A program made the position numbers and the translations under genes. From a virus (taxonomy: Duplodnaviria > Heunggongvirae > Uroviricota > Caudoviricetes), in IMG/VR virus record IMGVR_UViG_2548876956_000006: 36,639 nucleotides of DNA; one strand, given 5' to 3'. The notes beneath the pieces were generated by a model that saw only the letters and a program-made list of their open reading frames with translations, was not told the DNA's origin and did no database searches. This document shows positions 5,973-14,948 of this stretch, piece by piece (position 1 is the first letter of the stretch; the number at the start of each line of letters is the position of its first letter).

Positions 5973-6362
5973 ATGATTGACGCTCATGACTTCACAAGAT
6001 GGGTGCGCACACAGGACACCCGTCTGGCTCCCGTTCTTCAGGGATTATTTGATCTCTACATCCGTGGTCGTGACAACAGAGCACGCACTACAAAACCGGA
6101 GAATGCGGACACCCTTTATTTCACAGTAGACGACTGCTACCGCGTGGACTTAACACCACACGGGCTGGCGTTGCGCTGCCTGACACCGCATGGCGAATCA
6201 CTGCTGGCGTATTACGACTCCCCGGCCTCCGTATTTGCGGCAATGCTGGCGCATCACACTGCTGGCGGGTGTGCCTCGCTGAGTGAATACACCGCTGAAT
6301 TTAACCGCCTTTCCACCATCTTCTCGCAGGAGTGGCAGCGCGTGACGGGATACCAGCCATGA
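5973..6362 (+). CDS. Early-region protein immediately upstream of A (position of P2 B/orf83-like genes)
   Basis: 129-aa ORF whose stop overlaps the A start (ATGA). Confidence 0.5.
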   Translation: MIDAHDFTRWVRTQDTRLAPVLQGLFDLYIRGRDNRARTTKPENADTLYFTVDDCYRVDLTPHGLALRCLTPHGESLLAYYDSPASVFAAMLAHHTAGGCASLSEYTAEFNRLSTIFSQEWQRVTGYQP

Positions 6363-9199
6363 GTGAGTTTACATGGAGCTGGAATGAACCACGGCCAGCC
6401 ATTGAGCCGGACAGATTTACGGAGCGCAGGCAGGAAACTGAAACCGACCTGCAACGCGCCATCCGTTACTACCTTGAGGCGGACAAAAAGGCCCGGAAAG
6501 AACAGGAAGCGAAGGAGGAAGCCTTTTTCGCACAATCCACCGTGGGTAAAAAACTCATGGCATCCCTTGAGGAAGCCGGACAGCGTGAAAAGCTGGCACA
6601 AAGCATCATCAGCAAGCGTCAGGCAACAGAACAAGACCCGGTGGCCCGTGCTTTTGCCACACTGAAGGTGCTTCCCGTTTATCTGCGTGAACCTCTGAGC
6701 CGCCACCTCTCTTTCCTGCACAAAAAACAGGAATCCGATCGTCAGAAAGGCAAAAAGAGCTGGCAGGCTGAACGCTACGCGCGCGGAACCCTGCGCAAAA
6801 TATTCGAACGTCTGGACCGCACCGACAGCCGTTGGCTGACACCGGGTTATCGGTCCCTTGCCGGACGTGAACGCCTGGACGATTTGCTTTACCTGCCGCA
6901 GCTCAACAAACACCAGATACAGACGCTGGCCACCATGACGGCGGCGATGTTCAGCAGCACCTTCGAAAAACTCTGCGATGGTTTTGGCGCGACTGATGGC
7001 GAGCTGACCATGGATGTAACGCTGAAGGCGTATCAGATGCTGGCCCGCATGGCGTTACACTTGCACGCCATGCCTCCGCATTATGACGCACTGACAACAG
7101 ACAAAGACCGGAGGAACGAACCGGACACAGAACTGCTGCCGGGCGCAATCCTTCGCCTGACCTGTGCAGAATGGTGGAAACGCAAACTGTGGCTGTTACG
7201 TTGCGAGTGGAGAGAAGAACAACTCCGCGCCGCCTGTCTGGTTTCCAGAAAAACATCGCCCTATCTGAGTCAGGACGCGTTAAGCGAGTTTCGCGCACAG
7301 CGCGAGAAAACACGCGATTTCCTGAAAAGTTTCATGCTGGAAAATGAAGACGGGTTCACGATTGATCTCGAGACGGTGTATTACGCGGGAGTAAGTAACC
7401 CGGTTCACCGTAAGGCAGAAATGATGGCCACCATGAAGGGGCTGGAACTTCTGGCCGAAGCCCGTGGCGACAGAGCGGTGTTTCTGACTGTCACCTGCCC
7501 GTCAAAATACCACGCTACAACAGAGAACGGTCATCCGAACCCCAAATGGAACGGGGCCACCATGCGCGACTCCAGCGATTACCTGGTTAACACGTTTTTT
7601 GCGGCGGTCCGCAAAAAACTGAACCGCGACGGTCTGCGCTGGTATGGCATCCGCACGGTGGAGCCTCACCATGACGGCACTGTGCACTGGCATATGATGG
7701 TCTTTGCACATCCGGACGAGATTGAAACCATCGTGTCCCACGTCTGCGATATTGCCATTCAGGAAGACCGCCACGAGCTGGGCGATGACATAACTCCGCG
7801 TTTTAAGGCGGAGTACGTAGACGGCTCAAAAGGCACACCAACCAGCTACATCGCCACCTACATCGGAAAGAACCTGGACAGCCGCGCCGTGGATGGCATC
7901 GACCCGAAAACGGGCAAGCCACGCGTTGACCACGAAACCGGAAAATCAATGGCCGAGAGCGTGGAACGCGCCATCGGCTGGGCGCGCCTTCACCGGGTCC
8001 GCCAGTTCCAGTTCTTTGGTATCCCCTCCCGTCAGGTGTGGCGTGAACTGCGCCGCCTTGCCAGCCAGATGGCACGCAACCCGGAAGGCCCGCAACGGCT
8101 GAAGGATGACGCAATGGATGCGGTACTCGCTGCCGCTGATGCCGGGTGTTTTGCCACCTACATTGAAAAACAGGGTGGTGTGCTTGTTCCACGCAAAGAC
8201 TACCTGATTCGCACCGCCTACGACCTCGCAGATGATCTGAACGATTACGGTGAGCAGAGTGTACAGATTTACGGGATCTGGTCGCCGCTCATCGGGGAGT
8301 CTTCCCGCGTATGCACGCATCCGGATAACTGGAAGCTGGTAAGACGCAAACCAGAACAGGAAGGTAGCGCCCACGAAAATGGTTTTGACCTTCAGGGCGG
8401 CCCTGCCGCCCCTTGGACTCGTGGCAATAACTGTCCCCGTGAACAGGAAACAGACAACAACGGGACAGAACAGCCGGAAGAACGGCCAGCACCGTGGCCG
8501 CAGCTCCCTGACAGCGTTGAAGTGAACGAATGGATGCATTCACTGAAACGGCACGAACGCCGGGCGCTGATGCGTTCGCTTCGTGACAAACAGGCAAAAA
8601 ACAGCAGCGATGAAATGCAGAACTGGACACAGAGCCGCAAACAGCCACAGCCTTTGCCTGATAACCACGAGTTACTCGCTAAAGAATGGCGGGAGTCTGC
8701 TGAATCTCTCGGCCTGCATATTGGTGAACAGCAGATGCAGCACCTGTTACGGGGCGGCAGTCTGTACGTTGACGGCAGCATCATTGCACCGCAGGGATTT
8801 GAAATTGTACGCAAACCGGATACCCGCCCGGACAGCCGAATCACGCAGCTCTGGCAACGCCTGAGCCGTAATCACGGCGTAAGCAGCACGGAGATCCGCC
8901 ATAACCCGGTCGCCAGCTATCTGGAACAGCTGGGGGCATCAGACCCTGAAGCCGCCGCACGCCTGGCATCCACACTTCAGCAGGACCAGAACACCATGAA
9001 AACCCCCGTTACCGTGCTTTCTGACATGCTGCGCGCCATCCGTGACGCAGAGCACGCCCAGAGAATCAGTGAAACCACTGAACGCGCCCGCCGCAAAGCA
9101 GACCTGCTGCGGGGTAGCCTGACCAGTGGAAACAAAAAACAGACAGAAACGGGACTCACAAATCCCGTAAATGAGCAAAAAACGTGCCGCGATATATGA
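6359..9199 (+). CDS. A: Replication initiation protein, P2 gpA-like rolling-circle endonuclease
   Basis: Large ORF in the position of P2 A; contains an HxH-type motif (VHWHMMVFAHPDE) typical of Rep-family nickases. Start taken at the ATG overlapping the upstream stop; the ORF track starts at 6332. Confidence 0.8.
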   Translation: MSEFTWSWNEPRPAIEPDRFTERRQETETDLQRAIRYYLEADKKARKEQEAKEEAFFAQSTVGKKLMASLEEAGQREKLAQSIISKRQATEQDPVARAFATLKVLPVYLREPLSRHLSFLHKKQESDRQKGKKSWQAERYARGTLRKIFERLDRTDSRWLTPGYRSLAGRERLDDLLYLPQLNKHQIQTLATMTAAMFSSTFEKLCDGFGATDGELTMDVTLKAYQMLARMALHLHAMPPHYDALTTDKDRRNEPDTELLPGAILRLTCAEWWKRKLWLLRCEWREEQLRAACLVSRKTSPYLSQDALSEFRAQREKTRDFLKSFMLENEDGFTIDLETVYYAGVSNPVHRKAEMMATMKGLELLAEARGDRAVFLTVTCPSKYHATTENGHPNPKWNGATMRDSSDYLVNTFFAAVRKKLNRDGLRWYGIRTVEPHHDGTVHWHMMVFAHPDEIETIVSHVCDIAIQEDRHELGDDITPRFKAEYVDGSKGTPTSYIATYIGKNLDSRAVDGIDPKTGKPRVDHETGKSMAESVERAIGWARLHRVRQFQFFGIPSRQVWRELRRLASQMARNPEGPQRLKDDAMDAVLAAADAGCFATYIEKQGGVLVPRKDYLIRTAYDLADDLNDYGEQSVQIYGIWSPLIGESSRVCTHPDNWKLVRRKPEQEGSAHENGFDLQGGPAAPWTRGNNCPREQETDNNGTEQPEERPAPWPQLPDSVEVNEWMHSLKRHERRALMRSLRDKQAKNSSDEMQNWTQSRKQPQPLPDNHELLAKEWRESAESLGLHIGEQQMQHLLRGGSLYVDGSIIAPQGFEIVRKPDTRPDSRITQLWQRLSRNHGVSSTEIRHNPVASYLEQLGASDPEAAARLASTLQQDQNTMKTPVTVLSDMLRAIRDAEHAQRISETTERARRKADLLRGSLTSGNKKQTETGLTNPVNEQKTCRDI

Positions 9200-9275: not shown

Positions 9276-10235
9276 ATGAAAATTTGTATCGACGACGGCT
9301 CCACCAACATCAAGCTGGCATGGACTGAGAACGGCGAACGCCGCAACGCCATCAGCCCGAACAGCTTCAAGTCGGAATGGTCTGCGCCGTTCGGTGGCAC
9401 GCAGCCCGCGAACTACATGCTTGATGGCGTGCGCTATGGTTTTGATCCGGTCAGTGATCGCTTTGTCCAGACGACCGACACGCAATACCAGTACAGCGAT
9501 GTGAATGTCATTGCCATTCATCACGCGCTGGTCAAATCAGGCATCACGCCACAGGAGGTGGATATGGTTGTCACCCTGCCACTGAGCGAGTATTTCGACA
9601 CAAACGCACAGCCGGACATGGCCAACATCAACCGCAAAAAAGCAAACGTTATGCGCCCGGTGGAATACCAGAACGGCGAAGCATTCACTATCCGTAATGT
9701 ACGGGTTATGCCTGAATCCATTCCGGCTGGCTTTAAAGCACTGGCTGACATGAGTCCGTTTGAATCCCTGCTGATTGTGGATTTAGGTGGAACCACGCTG
9801 GATGTGGCAAAGGTTCAGGGACAACTGGCAGGTATCAGCCAGGTGTTTTGCGATCCACACGTAGGCGTTTCCCTGATGGCCGATGCAGTACTGTCGGTGA
9901 TGGCCACTAACGGTATGCGTACCAGTCACCACATCGCCAATACCATTATCGAACATCGCCATGATGAAGCCTGGCTGCGCCAGCACATCCACAATGACGC
10001 GCATTACGCCAGCCTGATGGCGGTTATTCGTGAAAAGGAAGAAACACTGAAACAACGCGTGATCCGCGCGCTGGCGGGTTTTTCGGGTTACGGGCGGGTG
10101 ATGGTTGTCGGTGGCGGGGCGGAGATTGTGGCACCCGCTATCCGCGAAGCCTGCGGAGTTAATGCGACTTTCATCGCGGACGGGGTGCCACAGTTTGCTC
10201 TGGTTAATGGGCTGTACGCAATGGACAAGGAGTAA
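9276..10235 (+). CDS. parM: ParM/StbA-family actin-like plasmid-segregation ATPase
   Basis: 319 aa; N-terminus MKICIDDGSTNIKLAW plus PNSFK, QYSDVNV, VMPESIPAG, DLGGTTLDV, FSGY, VVGGGAE and LVNGLY closely parallel plasmid R1 ParM as I recall it. Confidence 0.85.
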   Translation: MKICIDDGSTNIKLAWTENGERRNAISPNSFKSEWSAPFGGTQPANYMLDGVRYGFDPVSDRFVQTTDTQYQYSDVNVIAIHHALVKSGITPQEVDMVVTLPLSEYFDTNAQPDMANINRKKANVMRPVEYQNGEAFTIRNVRVMPESIPAGFKALADMSPFESLLIVDLGGTTLDVAKVQGQLAGISQVFCDPHVGVSLMADAVLSVMATNGMRTSHHIANTIIEHRHDEAWLRQHIHNDAHYASLMAVIREKEETLKQRVIRALAGFSGYGRVMVVGGGAEIVAPAIREACGVNATFIADGVPQFALVNGLYAMDKE

Positions 10236-10239
10236 ACCA

Positions 10240-10551
10240 ATGACGACACCAACCAGACGAATAAGTTTCTATCTGAAGCCCGCCGCCGTCAAGAACGAAG
10301 GCGAAGCATGCGCCTGGCTGGACAGCCTTACACCAGAAGCCCGTAAAAACGGCCAACGCGTGGCTTTTCTGGCTGGGCTGGCGCTTCTGAAAATGAATCC
10401 GGCAGAGGCTTACCGACTGGCAGCATGGGCTGACGATGAGGCGTTATCAGTGACACAAACCAGGACAGAACGCCCCCTGTCACAGCCAGTACCAACCGCA
10501 CAGATAACCAGTCAGATGGCCGGAAATATCAGGGCGTTATTTCCTGAATAA
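10240..10551 (+). CDS. parR: ParR-like small DNA-binding partner of ParM
   Basis: 103 aa directly after parM; RRISFYLKP...AWLDSLTPEARKNGQRVAFLAGLALLK...IRALFPE parallels R1 ParR (RRTIAFKLNP...DSIPQGERSR...AALTAGLAL...LRSLFPKE). The ORF track extends the frame upstream into parM; the ATG at 10240 is the plausible start. Confidence 0.6.
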   Translation: MTTPTRRISFYLKPAAVKNEGEACAWLDSLTPEARKNGQRVAFLAGLALLKMNPAEAYRLAAWADDEALSVTQTRTERPLSQPVPTAQITSQMAGNIRALFPE

Positions 10552-10614
10552 CACAACGTCAGGGCGAGTTCGCCCTGATCTCCATCTCAGAACATAAACA
10601 AGAAGAGCGACTTA

Positions 10615-10998
10615 ATGAGCAAAATCAACTATCAGGCATTACGTGAACGTTATTCACCTGCACCAGTACCAAAATGCCCTATTTGCGGCGAAGAAATGTC
10701 AATTCAGCGAATATCTGGAGCACTGGTTGTTTATGGCTGCTCCGGTTATGGTGATGAAGGAGATTTCAAAATTGGTCGAACTCTTGCCGACGAACATTAT
10801 GAAAAATCACGCGTAACAGTGTTGGATGTCGGGGATCCTGAAGTATTGGCGCTACTTGATTGGCTGGAAACCAAAGACAACCGAATCGCTGAACTGGAAA
10901 AAATCGCCACTGACTATGCACTTAAATTCCAGAAAGCACAGGACGCATTAAAGTACGCCGCTTTGCTGCATAGCAGGACAGTGCAGCTACAAGACTAA
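10615..10998 (+). CDS. Hypothetical protein with CxxC and C-terminal coiled-coil-like region
   Basis: 127 aa; CPICGEE...YGCSGYG; no family recognised. Confidence 0.45.
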   Translation: MSKINYQALRERYSPAPVPKCPICGEEMSIQRISGALVVYGCSGYGDEGDFKIGRTLADEHYEKSRVTVLDVGDPEVLALLDWLETKDNRIAELEKIATDYALKFQKAQDALKYAALLHSRTVQLQD

Positions 10999-11088
10999 CT
11001 TAAAGCGGAAGATTAATACATGGTGAGTCGGGGTAATTTGTTTTTATCCCGACAAATAAACAAAAAAGTGGACTATCTCTGTAGTATC

Positions 11089-11619
11089 TTATTCAGCATC
11101 GTCTCGTGCAGTCTGTGCATACGTCACAACAACGCCCAATGCATTAGTTTTCTTTTCAACATAGATAATATTGTCATATTCATAGTTACCATACGGATAG
11201 CAAATAAGAATATTTTTATGCAGATCGGGATCATCAACAAACGCTCCGGAACAGCTTCTTGAACTACCGGATGTATACTCATACGGTGCAACATATGATG
11301 ATGTTACTCCTGGTAAAAAATAAGTCACCATCATAAGAGGGATAATCAGGAATATCCCTGTAAGAATGCAAGAGCCAGCATAAACCTTCAGGTATTCCGA
11401 CAGTCCTTTCCAGCCACTTTGCTTCACTACCCCCCTCTTCACCAGAAACAAGGAGAAGAAAAAGGACATACCCATACTACACAAGATGTAATAATTGGAT
11501 ATACGCGAATTAAGATATGTAATCCTGTAGATATCTGCCCTCCACCAGTAAAAGAGGAAAATAATCCCTAGCACTGAAACAGTCATGCAAATCAAATAAG
11601 GATATGAATCTTTCTTCAT
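11089..11619 (-). CDS. Multi-pass membrane protein, AT-rich cargo in the A-cos (P2 tin/old-position) hotspot
   Basis: 176 aa, low-GC, opposite strand to the flanking operon; about three hydrophobic helices (VSVLGIIFLFYWW, FFFSLFLV, CILTGIFLIIPLMMVTYFL) followed by a soluble C-terminal segment. Confidence 0.55.
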   Translation of the reverse strand: MKKDSYPYLICMTVSVLGIIFLFYWWRADIYRITYLNSRISNYYILCSMGMSFFFSLFLVKRGVVKQSGWKGLSEYLKVYAGSCILTGIFLIIPLMMVTYFLPGVTSSYVAPYEYTSGSSRSCSGAFVDDPDLHKNILICYPYGNYEYDNIIYVEKKTNALGVVVTYAQTARDDAE

Positions 11620-12150
11620 GTCTTGCGCTCATTAAAATTTCACTGCTACGAACAAATTTACCATCCGTTTTTTGCGCAGAAAACAGCACGATGCACACTG
11701 CACGATAGTGCACAAATTTGCACAATTTTTTTGAACGACTTTTTACCCTTCCGGCCCGCATGGCGGCTGGATCCGTCAAGGATCCGTGCGTGCACAAAAA
11801 AACGCGTTTTTTCTGCGCGCAGGTGACGGGGGAACAGCCCGCGTTTCAGGGGGTAAATAGCATTCCCTGAACGATGTCGCAGAGACACAACAGAATGGCT
11901 GTATTTCTCACGCTGAGCGTGAAAAATACGTGAGGGATTCTGATTTGATGGGGTGAAAGGTAAGGCCGTCAAAATCGCACTGAGGCGGCGAAGAACATGC
12001 AGTCAACGCGGTGGGATTGCGTAAGAGTCTGACCGCCGATGATGGCAATAAGCAGAAAAGCGTCGTGAAATTATCTGATTGATACAGGAGCTGGAGAGCC
12101 GGGGCATAAATTTTTTATGCCCCGCCGAAGCAGCAGACAAGCGAAGCGCG

Positions 12151-13197
12151 TCAGGATGTGGGCTGGGTATCTAACAGTGCGTAAGGGTTAAAGCGGATCA
12201 CCTCTTCGCCAAGCCAGTCATTGATGTGCTTCATGGCCTCCATGACGGGCATCAGCTCGTTAATTGCGTAAACCCGCGCGGCCTTCTCCACATCACCAAA
12301 CGCACTTTTTTCACCCGGCATCGCCCCCATCAGTTGCGGCGGAACGCGGTGCGCAGCCAGCACATCATCACGGGATGCCGCCTTAACATTCATGAACTCA
12401 TCCTTTGCGGTGATCTGCTGGAACGGCAAAATTTGCACCCCCTCTTTGCCCCCGTTGGGCGCATGAATGAGCACGTTTTTAAACGCACCGCCACCACGTG
12501 CACCCTGTAGCGTTTCTTTCAGGGAGTCCATGCTTTCGCGGTTTACCTGCGCTGCACCGATGTAGATGATGCACCCGGCGTGGGATCCGTTGTCGTAATA
12601 CAGTTTTCTGAACATGTCCGCCGAATGAGACAGGCTGGCCGAGAGTAATGCGCCGAGATATTCCGGCATGCCGTAGATTTCCTGGTTAATGTCAGGATTC
12701 ATCAGGTGGCACACTTTGCCAGGGCGAAACTGGAACGCATCCTTGCCATCCTGCACATACCACCATGATTCAAGATCGCTACCGCGTCGCATGTATTTCG
12801 CCAGGGCGTGCCGTAATTTAAGCGGTTCGCCGAGCATATTGCTTCGAAGCTCAAGGAATGCGTTACCGAACACAAACCAGTCCAGCGCCAGCGCCGAGAA
12901 ATCCTGCCGGGAAAGCAGCGGGTGCGGGATGTAGCAACCGAGTAATACATTGCGCTTAAAGTAAAGCGCAGACTGATGCCAGGACGTTTGCCGGGCAGCT
13001 CTTGCCAGACCGTACCAGTCCACCGGGGTTTCATACCACCGCCCGTTATCAGCACAGTACATATTGTCCAGCAAGTCATGCCCGGTCAGGCGATAAGGAC
13101 CATCAAATGTGAATGCACTGAGCGACGATTCTTTCCTGAGCGCATCAGCGAGATCAATGCGTGAACTCATGCGCACTTTTTTATTTTTTCTGCTCAT
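12151..13197 (-). CDS. Q: Portal (capsid portal vertex) protein, P2 gpQ-like
   Basis: 348 aa in the conserved Q-P leftward pair; length and position match P2 Q; shares one base with the P start/stop. Confidence 0.85.
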   Translation of the reverse strand: MSRKNKKVRMSSRIDLADALRKESSLSAFTFDGPYRLTGHDLLDNMYCADNGRWYETPVDWYGLARAARQTSWHQSALYFKRNVLLGCYIPHPLLSRQDFSALALDWFVFGNAFLELRSNMLGEPLKLRHALAKYMRRGSDLESWWYVQDGKDAFQFRPGKVCHLMNPDINQEIYGMPEYLGALLSASLSHSADMFRKLYYDNGSHAGCIIYIGAAQVNRESMDSLKETLQGARGGGAFKNVLIHAPNGGKEGVQILPFQQITAKDEFMNVKAASRDDVLAAHRVPPQLMGAMPGEKSAFGDVEKAARVYAINELMPVMEAMKHINDWLGEEVIRFNPYALLDTQPTS

Positions 13198-14948
13198 CAG
13201 AACTCCATAACCGTGAAACGCTCGTTTTCTCCTTCGCCGCCAATCGGTTCGTTAATGACAGCAAGCATGGTTGCCCACGCAAGGTCGCCGTGGCTGATCC
13301 CCCTCGCGCGGTCCGTTTCGTAAGTGATAAAGCCGCCCGGTGTTTTCACCTTACGCACGGCGTTAAAGGCCGCGACCAGCTCGCGTTCGGCGCGATCGTA
13401 TTCCCACCGCCCGGCACGCATTATTTGCAGCATTTTCAGTACCAGCGACCGTTTTGATGACAGCGTGAAGGTGTACGGAATAGCAGCAGGGAAAAACCGT
13501 TTCACTATCTGATAAACAGCCTCCCCGTTCCCGCCCGTCACATCAATGCCGATGTGTTCCACGTTGTAGCGACACGTGAACTCTTCAATGACTCTGGCCT
13601 GTTCTTCAAACTCCAGCCCCTGAACGCGTCGCGTCTCCACCGTTCGAAAACGGCCACCAGGAACAGCCGGAGGAACCACCACGGACACAGCGCCGCTGTC
13701 GCCGTTGCCACTGCTGCCGTTTGCGTCATACCCAATCCATACCAGACGATTCCCCATCGGGCGGGGAGCAAAAGGTTTCCAGTCTTTCCAGTCGTCGTAT
13801 CCGTCAACGCCACAGCCAATCAGGATATTCAGGTTAAATGCCGATTCCCCTTCGCGGACAAACTCACACATATAGAGATTGAGGAACTCGTCTTCGGTGT
13901 TTTCATCACGAATTTCATCAATATCGGTGTGTTTCCAGCCGTGATTAACCACATCTTCCAGCGTGACAATTTGCCGCCACGTCCGGTCAGGGCAGATAAG
14001 CCCGTTATGCAGCGTTTTCCAGTCCACAGAAAAACGCTGGCGTTTATGCGAGGCCTTTTTCTCGTTCCAGCGGTCGCCGTTCCAGTAGGCGTATGCCTCG
14101 TGCGTTTCGGTGGATGGCGTGGAGAAGTAGGTGCGCCGCAGTCCGCTGAGGGTTGCCATAGCGCCAGCCACCTTGCGCAGTTCAGCAAAGCGACTGACCC
14201 AGAAAAATTCATCAAAATAAAAATTGCCCGTATAGGACTGTGCCGACGCAGCAGAAGTGCCGAGAAAATGCAGCTCTGCGCCGTTGGAGAGGATGATTTT
14301 ATCGCCCCCTTTCAGCTCCACATCAACTTCAGCCGCGGCCTTCTGAATAATGCTTTTAAACTGGAACGCCTGACGACGCGACGCAGACAAAAAAATCTGG
14401 TTACGCTGGTAAGGTTGCGCCACATCGTCACGCAGCGCCATCAGCAGTGCTTCCTGTGCAAAATACCAGGTCGCCCCAATCTGTCGGGATTTCAGGATCA
14501 TCCTGTTACGTATCCCGGCTTCCCTGCAAAGGGTCAGGGAGTCAAACCAGCTTCGCTGATGCCACTCCAGCCTGCTGATGATTTTTTCCCGCAGTGCGGC
14601 AATCTGTTCCGGCGTGAAATGATTTTTGAGTTTTTTCGCCCGGCCTTTCTTTCCTGCGGCCATCACATCCGGCTGGCCATCATGCAGCTTTTTAAGCTGC
14701 CGTGTCAGCAGGTCTATTTCCTTAAAGTCACCGCCTGTTTTATTCTGTTTTTCAGTAAGCTGGATGAGGCGCGCATCGATGGACTGCGTGACACGCTGCA
14801 CGGGTGGCGTTTCATCCCACTGGTCGCGTTTTTTCCACGCATAAATCGTGTTCGGGTTTATTCCCATCAGACGTGATATTTCTGCGGGCGGATAACCCTG
14901 CCAGTAAAGTTGCCGCGCACGCTGGCGCACAAAAGCGTCCTGAATCAT
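13197..14948 (-). CDS. P: Terminase large (ATPase) subunit, P2 gpP-like
   Basis: 583 aa, divergent from the capsid operon; conserved P2 synteny. Confidence 0.85.
   Translation of the reverse strand: MIQDAFVRQRARQLYWQGYPPAEISRLMGINPNTIYAWKKRDQWDETPPVQRVTQSIDARLIQLTEKQNKTGGDFKEIDLLTRQLKKLHDGQPDVMAAGKKGRAKKLKNHFTPEQIAALREKIISRLEWHQRSWFDSLTLCREAGIRNRMILKSRQIGATWYFAQEALLMALRDDVAQPYQRNQIFLSASRRQAFQFKSIIQKAAAEVDVELKGGDKIILSNGAELHFLGTSAASAQSYTGNFYFDEFFWVSRFAELRKVAGAMATLSGLRRTYFSTPSTETHEAYAYWNGDRWNEKKASHKRQRFSVDWKTLHNGLICPDRTWRQIVTLEDVVNHGWKHTDIDEIRDENTEDEFLNLYMCEFVREGESAFNLNILIGCGVDGYDDWKDWKPFAPRPMGNRLVWIGYDANGSSGNGDSGAVSVVVPPAVPGGRFRTVETRRVQGLEFEEQARVIEEFTCRYNVEHIGIDVTGGNGEAVYQIVKRFFPAAIPYTFTLSSKRSLVLKMLQIMRAGRWEYDRAERELVAAFNAVRKVKTPGGFITYETDRARGISHGDLAWATMLAVINEPIGGEGENERFTVMEF

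Follow-up and report, generated by a model that had tools for sequence, protein, structure and literature searches.

HK97 gp15, which sits in the inner membrane, prevents phage genome entry at the PtsG/tape-measure step. In phage P2, the lysogen-expressed exclusion genes tin and old lie between the replication gene A and the portal gene Q, in the order A(+), orf91(+), tin(-), old(-), cos, Q(-), P(-), and are transcribed toward A from a cos-proximal promoter, the old-tin mRNA starting about 150 nt inside cos. The P2 record gives Old as an exonuclease with an AAA-family ATPase annotation and credits Tin with blocking T-even phage growth. P22 SieA, an inner-membrane protein of 162-164 residues with three predicted transmembrane (TM) helices, blocks DNA delivery alone (PMC10883804). 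Rousset et al. defined a hotspot between gpA and gpQ that comes in 1,650 gene arrangements and holds defense systems as well as other cargo, such as the partition systems present in about a quarter of P2-like phages (PMC9122126), and the P2 hotspot is rich in anti-phage genes (PMC9122126, PMC13586616). Here, we analyze ORF176, a 176-residue inner-membrane protein of the PHROG 1416 family encoded in a 36,639-nt stretch of DNA from the IMG/VR record IMGVR_UViG_2548876956_000006 (hereafter, the window). ORF176 is an intact gene under purifying selection that makes up a one-gene accessory cassette; it lies in the gpA-Q hotspot of a prophage that is P88-like and belongs to the P2 family. We regard it as a candidate superinfection-exclusion factor.

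The open reading frame (ORF) is complete and occupies positions 11089-11619 on the minus strand, from an ATG at 11617-11619 to a TAA stop codon at 11089-11091. A first-pass annotation had placed a strongly AT-rich, opposite-strand protein of 176 residues at 11020-11640; this interval indeed encloses ORF176, which has a GC content of 0.388 (0.401 at third codon positions, GC3), compared with 0.509 for the whole window and 0.52-0.57 for the flanking phage genes. At least 1,000 contigs carry exactly the same protein. The ratio of nonsynonymous to synonymous substitution rates (dN/dS) is 0.10 relative to the phage 434 homolog (dS 1.2) and 0.145 relative to a Salmonella homolog, and the constraint is present in both halves of the gene (codons 1-102 and codons 103-176). 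Because dN/dS is this low (0.10-0.15) across both halves and the protein recurs without change on so many contigs, ORF176 is a real gene and a chance ORF is excluded.

RefSeq labels the P88-type copy (window 11089-11664; strains H3 and RM8352) as "hypothetical protein, frameshifted," which implies a decaying pseudogene. Although the Prokaryotic Genome Annotation Pipeline (PGAP) raised this flag in both strains and the adjacent ead gene is genuinely truncated, the 176-codon frame is open and identical on the contigs counted above, and it is constrained over its full length, codons 1-102 included. The RefSeq reference is a 200-residue form with 24 additional N-terminal residues. This extension is absent from all of the diverged homologs, every one of which shares the start MKK(D/Y)SYPYL, and the Salmonella copies carry an in-frame stop in the corresponding stretch 5' of the ATG. 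In the window, in-frame stops (taa tga, 11631-11636) lie four to five codons (12-17 nt) 5' of the ORF176 ATG, so the N-terminal extension of the 200-residue database forms is noncoding here. Taken together, the mis-called start of the reference, the shared N terminus, the upstream stops, and the dN/dS constraint indicate that the frameshift is probably an annotation artifact that leaves the protein itself unaffected. The pseudogene reading, which we rejected on selection and start-codon conservation, is most improbable.

Kyte-Doolittle hydropathy windows give three hydrophobic segments (residues ~7-25, 42-60, and 80-102) followed by an acidic tail of ~74 residues. An AlphaFold2 model built from a 32-sequence family alignment (pLDDT 91.2, pTM 0.79) places helices at residues 6-29, 38-61, and 71-101, a short strand in loop 1 (residues 34-36), and five beta strands between residues 105 and 170. 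The two methods thus agree on the three TM helices and soluble C-terminal domain that had been proposed from the sequence. Codons 1-102 (11314-11619, minus strand) encode, according to hydropathy and AlphaFold2, the conserved N terminus (MKKxSYPYL), the three TM helices, loop 1, and a basic cytoplasmic loop 2; codons 103-176 (11092-11313, minus strand) encode a five-stranded beta domain with a predicted location in the periplasm. Across the family, the N terminus has a net charge of +1.2, loop 1 of +0.4, and loop 2 of +2.1, and the positive-inside rule applied to these values gives good support to an N-in/C-out topology, which would place the beta domain and loop 1 (motif W26, I30-Y31-R32, T34, and L36 in ORF176) at the periplasmic face of the inner membrane. 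The predicted cytoplasmic exposure is tiny (~5 N-terminal residues and the basic loop of ~9 residues), and nearly all of the nonmembrane mass lies on one side.

Conservation is concentrated on that side. The C-terminal domain is the best-conserved region, with a consensus frequency of 0.55 compared with 0.33-0.47 for the TM helices and loops and a dN/dS of 0.076 compared with 0.114. In the 32-sequence alignment, whose most distant members share 24% identity, three positions never vary (C123, C140, and G162), and W26, G125, I137, and K156 are nearly invariant. The two cysteines, Cys123 (11251-11253, minus strand) and Cys140 (11200-11202, minus strand), are the only ones in the C-terminal domain of 31 of the 32 family members, and a disulfide between them probably stabilizes the predicted periplasmic domain. 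No conserved catalytic-looking residues stand out in the alignment. The TM helices are the least conserved part; they are not amphipathic and lack a conserved polar face. We read ORF176, on the strength of this model, as a membrane-anchored binding module that would be displayed at the outer face of the inner membrane.

This arrangement bears directly on abortive infection, in which ORF176 would permeabilize or depolarize the inner membrane on sensing infection and the cell would die before phage release. Small membrane proteins are effectors in several defense systems (PMC9122126), and the hotspot location would be in keeping with such a role. However, ORF176 is a single gene without a sensor partner in any context, its few cytoplasmic residues offer nothing with which to sense an intracellular infection, its poorly conserved TM helices show nothing pore-like, and there is no PADLOC match. 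Moreover, an apparently constitutive putative promoter and carriage by 18% of complete E. coli genomes (both described below) argue that the protein is tolerated when expressed. We consider abortive infection unlikely; exclusion at the envelope fits better.

We searched widely for relatives of known function. A word-indexed search of 5.8 billion proteins returned 61 relatives, all annotated as hypothetical and none with a Pfam domain, and an exhaustive profile search of 1.84 billion cluster representatives returned just 62 clusters at E<=1e-3, which marks the family as a small one. Its members are 166-189 residues long, have a common architecture, and come from Escherichia, Shigella, Salmonella, Enterobacter, Citrobacter, Cedecea, Klebsiella, Kosakonia, Phytobacter, Pseudescherichia, Serratia, Pantoea (megaplasmids), Proteus, Providencia, and Pseudomonas. 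The sole library match was PHROG 1416, whose function is unassigned (ORF176, E 1.6e-45, residues 90-175); all 32 aligned homologs match it (best E 2.8e-50). This profile has 90 positions and covers the C-terminal half alone because many phage annotations call a truncated ORF. ORF176 had no match in Pfam, NCBIfam, or PADLOC (nothing at E<=1 in the last), and Pfam was also null for all 32 family members. For T4 Imm, SieB, RexB, Old, and the PD-/PDC- candidates, no profile matched in PADLOC (E<=1), Pfam (E<=10, 32 members), or NCBIfam, a result that covers the families held in these libraries.

Structure-based searches were similarly null. The best hit of a sequence-profile search of the Protein Data Bank (PDB), run with the full length and with the C-terminal domain alone, had an E of 0.47, and Foldseek against BFVD returned nothing at E<=1e-3. 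Weaker BFVD matches carried names that hint at an oligonucleotide/oligosaccharide-binding (OB)-like barrel (NfeD-like C-terminal domain, tRNA_anti-like, RNase II); being scattered and weak, these names were rejected as evidence for an OB-like fold. The protein had first been described as belonging to no assignable family, and Pfam, NCBIfam, PADLOC, PDB profiles, and fold searches all leave it there; a housekeeping transporter family, whose assignment would have spoken against an exclusion role, was looked for by sequence and by fold and none was found. In the literature, we found nothing functional on the phage mEp332 homolog, phrog_1416, or WP_000120056, and the P2-hotspot papers do not mention the ORF176 protein.

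By analogy of design, the nearest precedent for ORF176 is P22 SieA, the product of a prophage-expressed single gene with its own promoter and, like ORF176, an inner-membrane protein of similar size with three predicted TM helices. The conserved motif of SieA is predicted to be cytoplasmic and SieA has no beta domain, whereas ORF176 has a conserved, predicted periplasmic beta domain. Kinship between the two was tried and rejected: the hhalign probability is 0.14%, and the SieA C-terminal motif FxRYPxEAxxFNK (PMC10883804) is absent from ORF176. A second comparison is HK97 gp15, the moron product of a lambdoid phage; it has 62 residues, and its gene lies among tail genes rather than in the slot between int and exo that lambdoid copies of ORF176 occupy; kinship was again rejected (hhalign probability 0.75% over 12 columns). 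The P2 genes old and tin share the slot and orientation of ORF176, but neither encodes a small protein with three TM helices and neither has sequence kinship with ORF176, which implies a different mechanism. Short NfeD-type proteins, such as Bacillus subtilis YuaF and E. coli YbbJ, have about three TM helices followed by a C-terminal OB-fold beta barrel; their beta domain is cytoplasmic and works with stomatin/flotillin partners. Their overall architecture and size are strikingly like those of ORF176, a resemblance only: the beta domain of ORF176 is predicted to be periplasmic and carries the cysteine pair, the BFVD match to an NfeD-like C-terminal domain is weak (rank 10, probability 0.28, TM-score 0.26), Pfam gave no NfeD match at E<=10, and no SPFH gene was present in any neighborhood examined.

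Phages carry the ORF176 family only in two accessory slots, gpA-Q and int-exo, and always antisense to early genes. In P2-like prophages of Salmonella and Enterobacter, homologs of 55-66% identity lie just after Q, on the strand of Q and convergent with gpA. Fourteen IMG/VR contigs use this slot too, some of them from lineages in which gpA shares just 34-59% identity with that of the window. Comparing synteny across P2-like prophages, one of the checks first suggested for this locus, gave a positive result for Salmonella, for Enterobacter, and for diverged P2-like contigs of viral origin. In lambdoid phages (434, 2B8, and mEp332), copies of ~80% identity lie between int/xis and exo, antisense to the pL operon; the O157:H7 cryptic prophage adjoining ybhC has its copy in this slot as well, and the layout is found in 64 of the 64 lambdoid IMG/VR contigs with a homolog. 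Among complete E. coli genomes, 999 of 5,426 (18%) have a homolog: 77 at >=99% identity in the P88-type slot and 918 at 60-80% nucleotide identity, of the lambdoid type. The carriers include Shiga toxin-producing E. coli (STEC) of serogroups O157:H7, O121, O103, and O45, and the homolog is abundant in Shigella sonnei and Salmonella.

The window is itself a P88-like E. coli prophage (Xuanwuvirus, P2 family), with flanks 95-97% identical to phage P88 and its relatives. Since P88 and other Xuanwuviruses have these flanks in common at that identity and lack window ~10980-11696, ORF176 is true variable cargo. Its absence from such close relatives, which makes it dispensable, is one of several observations that bear on a function in the carrier's own cycle, such as antiholin-like timing of lysis or protection from lysis from without, fed by read-through from the late P-Q operon. 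ORF176 is co-directional with P and Q, and its membrane location and periplasmic domain resemble those of some lysis regulators. Yet, the lambdoid copies are antisense to pL and far from late and lysis genes, chromosomal homologs exist without any phage, and a strong, perfect hairpin (12100-12124) stands just downstream of the Q stop codon, where P2 has its tQ terminator. We regard a phage-cycle function as very unlikely.

Expression would instead come from a promoter of its own. Upstream of ORF176, a putative promoter (11655-11683, minus strand) combines a -35-like TTTTCT (11678-11683) with an extended -10 element, TGG TAAATT (11655-11663), at a spacing of 17 nt counting the TGG; the predicted transcription start lies near position ~11648, ~30-35 nt 5' of the ATG. 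The motif TG(G/A)TAA(A/G/T)TT recurs 44-48 nt 5' of the ATG in 434, mEp332, the Salmonella and Enterobacter P2-like prophages, a Cedecea islet, and a Citrobacter chromosome, and the DNA around it differs between those contexts. This footprint points to a sigma-70 extended -10 promoter that would allow ORF176 to be expressed from the prophage regardless of phage regulation, as a moron. In agreement with this, the composition of ORF176 is unlike that of its neighbors (GC 0.388 vs. 0.51-0.57), and the unit formed by the gene and its upstream block is present in unrelated phages, namely lambdoid 434, 2B8, and mEp332 and the P2-like phages of Salmonella and Enterobacter.

The traveling unit extends beyond the coding sequence. 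About 140-230 nt of upstream DNA accompany ORF176 between contexts; in the window, this is the noncoding block 11620-11756 (minus strand), which moves with ORF176 between phage families, and the 3' flank of the gene (11001-11088, minus strand) is co-transferred with it. Within the upstream DNA, block 11696-11756 contains three TGTGCA repeats that form a terminator-like hairpin with a T-run on the plus strand (11708-11733; GTGCACAAATTTGCAC AATTTTTTTG). This block is part of the P88-type backbone, where it is retained irrespective of cargo; 434, mEp332, and an O157:H7 prophage have a diverged copy of it upstream of their ORF176 homolog. Because a 58-nt piece of P88 backbone containing the hairpin is common to P88, which has no ORF176, and to the DNA upstream of the lambdoid-prophage copies, the comparison suggests transfer of the cassette out of a P2-like phage and into lambdoid ones.

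Three further observations concern this unit and its surroundings. Between positions 11757 and 11834, the window has 78 nt of cos-proximal backbone that are absent from the lambdoid cassette copies, which match on both sides; the segment is palindrome-rich (GGATCC...GGATCC, A6CGCGT7). Some Salmonella P2-like prophages have two overlapping ORFs of 81 and 119 residues between Q and the homolog, on the same strand, as further cargo of this hotspot (L004:7284-7888 and L008:7227-7831); neither has a Pfam match, and both are absent elsewhere. A 56-residue "putative membrane protein" annotated upstream of the homolog in 434 (CPT_434B_35, L001:5755-5925) was considered as a partner and set aside as a doubtful call: it has no Pfam match, and since the DNA that it overlies is homologous to noncoding P2-type backbone, it is probably no real gene.

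Any mechanism has to accommodate a single gene, carried by 18% of complete E. coli genomes, whose product has no cytoplasmic domain and no enzyme-like motif. Our leading reading, held tentatively and favored by the hotspot position, the predicted structure, and the likeness in design to SieA, is that ORF176 is a superinfection-exclusion factor that would block phage genome entry at the outer face of the inner membrane. ORF176 would reside in the inner membrane of the lysogen, and its periplasmic domain would bind a conserved component at the outer face of that membrane, either a host protein on which incoming phages depend to translocate their genomes or the conduit through which translocation occurs. 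Superinfecting phages would then adsorb without delivering their DNA, leaving the cell alive. A host component or heterotypic phages would be a likelier target than the injection machinery of the carrier because a protein of ~80% identity serves both a myovirus and siphoviruses and because the periplasmic domain is its best-conserved part. We also count in favor of exclusion that carriage in phages is confined to slots where exclusion and defense genes accumulate.

Several observations weigh against exclusion. ORF176 has no sequence or fold kinship to any characterized exclusion protein (SieA, HK97 gp15, Pfam, PADLOC), published machine-learning estimates rate as antiviral only 15-32% of the unknown proteins in P2 hotspots (PMC13586616), and the cargo of such hotspots is partly nondefensive, parMR in the same hotspot being an example. 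A scan for consensus promoters found no canonical promoter for ORF176, the promoter above being a motif reading, and no convincing intrinsic terminator lies 3' of the gene on the minus strand (3' flank fold z-score -0.82 vs. shuffles); the own terminator of a moron is missing here. Outside phages, homologs occur in Citrobacter, Serratia, Klebsiella, Kosakonia, Phytobacter, Pseudescherichia, Pantoea megaplasmids, Proteus, Providencia, and Pseudomonas, as solitary genes among ordinary metabolic and regulatory genes and not in defense islands. That the deeper diversity of the family is chromosomal and solitary suggests an ancestral cellular role.

The nonphage homologs were surveyed with one genome per species, which returned 10 loci; 9 of them have no P2 or lambda markers within 7 kb, and the remaining one is E. 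coli lambdoid phage DNA in a mislabeled metagenome-assembled genome (MAG). That contig, from a "Candidatus Nanosynbacter" MAG (JARKOR010000073.1; L023, 3.6 kb), carries lambdoid genes next to the ORF176 homolog, with exo 98% and bet 99% identical to those of 434, and is almost certainly binning contamination. Further loci from Pseudomonas, Cedecea, Pantoea, and Serratia were added to this survey and fit the picture of a solitary gene. When the neighbors at 13 nonphage loci were clustered and annotated, no conserved partner gene emerged beyond local synteny. In most chromosomes, the GC content of the homolog is 7-10 points below its surroundings; in Kosakonia, Phytobacter, and Pseudomonas poae, it equals that of the genome. 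One chromosomal islet has an integrase fragment.

Such loci bring in the alternative that ORF176 serves a non-antiviral lysogenic-conversion or host-envelope function, as an ancestral cellular inner-membrane protein acting at the periplasmic face, and that phages carry it because it raises host fitness and not because it stops phages. Modulation of a sugar phosphotransferase system (PTS) permease, envelope-stress signaling, and orphan immunity against a periplasm-acting bacteriocin or type VI secretion system (T6SS) effector would all fall under this heading. The solitary chromosomal and megaplasmid homologs of Enterobacterales and Pseudomonas, free of phage markers within 7 kb, argue for it, as do the three genera or species in which gene and genome GC agree, the strong conservation of the periplasmic domain, as expected for a conserved cellular partner, and the nondefense cargo that hotspots also hold (PMC9122126). 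PTS-permease and extracytoplasmic function (ECF) sigma neighbors, which recur around the homologs, point the same way; they were spotted post hoc and may be due to chance. By contrast, no toxin, transporter, or regulator partner is kept across contexts, the low GC of most chromosomal copies and the islet with its integrase fragment are what imported DNA would show, and the phage copies are confined to two slots rich in exclusion and defense genes. An envelope function is possible but short of probable, and we rank it second to exclusion; it is a bundle, each member of which is individually less likely than exclusion.

The PTS neighbors are Glc-family permeases, ptsG in Serratia and a bglF-like EIIBCA in Klebsiella, and an scrKYABR operon adjoins the homolog at what seems to be the same site in another enterobacterium (PTS-adjacent loci L032:4877-7510, L034:3333-5510, L028:4882-7537, and L016:4130-8543). 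PtsG and ManYZ are inner-membrane factors that siphophages exploit for DNA entry, and this use makes the neighborhood suggestive. A more far-reaching proposal, to which we give little credence, is that the family forms a hitherto unrecognized class of carrier-independent genome-entry blockers that would clamp a conserved inner-membrane host factor on its periplasmic side, with a Glc-family PTS permease such as PtsG as the most appealing candidate. The phage gene would have been captured from chromosomal genes beside such permeases (Serratia ptsG, Klebsiella bglF-like, scr operon) and then, along with a segment of P2 backbone, have spread from P2-like phages to lambdoid ones.

Other neighborhoods are noted here as observations. 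The Pseudomonas homologs are divergent from an ECF sigma/FecR-like pair and lie near an ArnT-like (PMT_2) glycosyltransferase, and an enterobacterial MAG copy is convergent with ECF sigma and DsbD-like genes (ECF-sigma-adjacent loci L013:7527-8510, L017:772-2907, and L031:6953-8720). The Phytobacter homolog (L030:2803-6510) adjoins a 1235-residue protein with DUF4062 and tetratricopeptide repeats (TPR) that is reminiscent of NLR/STAND-type defense proteins, and the P. poae homolog has a type I restriction-modification system at a distance of 1.7 kb. The Serratia marcescens sequence NZ_CP042515.1 (L034), deposited as "plasmid pE28_003" (linear, 67 kb), carries the housekeeping genes mltG-tmk-holB-ycfH-ptsG and looks like a chromosome fragment mislabeled as a plasmid.

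In the window, the hotspot is bounded by the replication protein gpA (6332-9199, plus strand; PF05840, E 1.7e-129) and the portal gpQ (12151-13197, minus strand), the latter followed by terminase P (13197-14948, minus strand). The first-pass annotation had equated this position with the A-cos slot of P2 tin/old, and the gene order from the gpA side to Q and the orientation agree. Its placement of ORF176 on the opposite strand holds relative to gpA, parM, parR, and ead, all on the plus strand, but not relative to Q and P, which are co-directional with ORF176. The other cargo begins with a partition module, ParM (StbA; 9276-10235, plus strand) and ParR/StbB (~10240-10551, plus strand); its position directly after gpA raises the possibility of plasmid-like maintenance of the phage, which Rousset et al. 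noted for about a quarter of P2-like phages (PMC9122126). An Ead/Ea22-like remnant of 127 residues (10615-10998, plus strand; PF13935, E 3.3e-28), convergent with ORF176, marks the left edge of the cargo, and RefSeq annotates this ead gene (10615-10998) as lacking its C terminus. Ead/Ea22-like proteins are a lambdoid early-left-operon family, found here in a P2-like phage. Homology to 434 and mEp332 stops at 11001, and since the lambdoid-cassette homology thus begins 3 nt past the ead stop codon, one cargo junction lies at the end of ead.

On its other side, ORF176 is separated from Q by about 530 nt of noncoding DNA, which contains near-perfect inverted repeats at 11901-11929 and 12100-12124. 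The cos site was not located: the P2 cos 19-mer is absent at up to three mismatches, and nothing in the region is homologous to the P2 cos junction. No RNA families were found in 10400-12300.

Database entries for these sequences already exist, as hypothetical proteins, and the hotspot has been described in detail before. The present analysis adds an outline of the family, with the correct start of its members, their predicted topology and cysteine pair, their distribution over two slots, the promoter footprint, the probable transfer from P2-like to lambdoid phages, and the annotation artifact that hides it. A small membrane protein in the P2 hotspot will not surprise the specialist, and the interest lies in its prevalence in pathogenic E. 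coli: the gene is present in 999 of 5,426 complete E. coli genomes, STEC among them, yet it has no name, domain, or phenotype. Part of it falls in an annotation blind spot, with the P88-type prophage copies hidden in RefSeq as a frameshifted pseudogene. If ORF176 is not antiviral, it would be a cautionary example that a small membrane protein in a defense hotspot need not be a defense gene. Should it prove to be an exclusion factor, the small group of known inner-membrane entry blockers would gain a structurally distinct new family, one that would work from both myovirus and siphovirus prophages and would matter for the host range of therapeutic phages against pathogenic E. coli.

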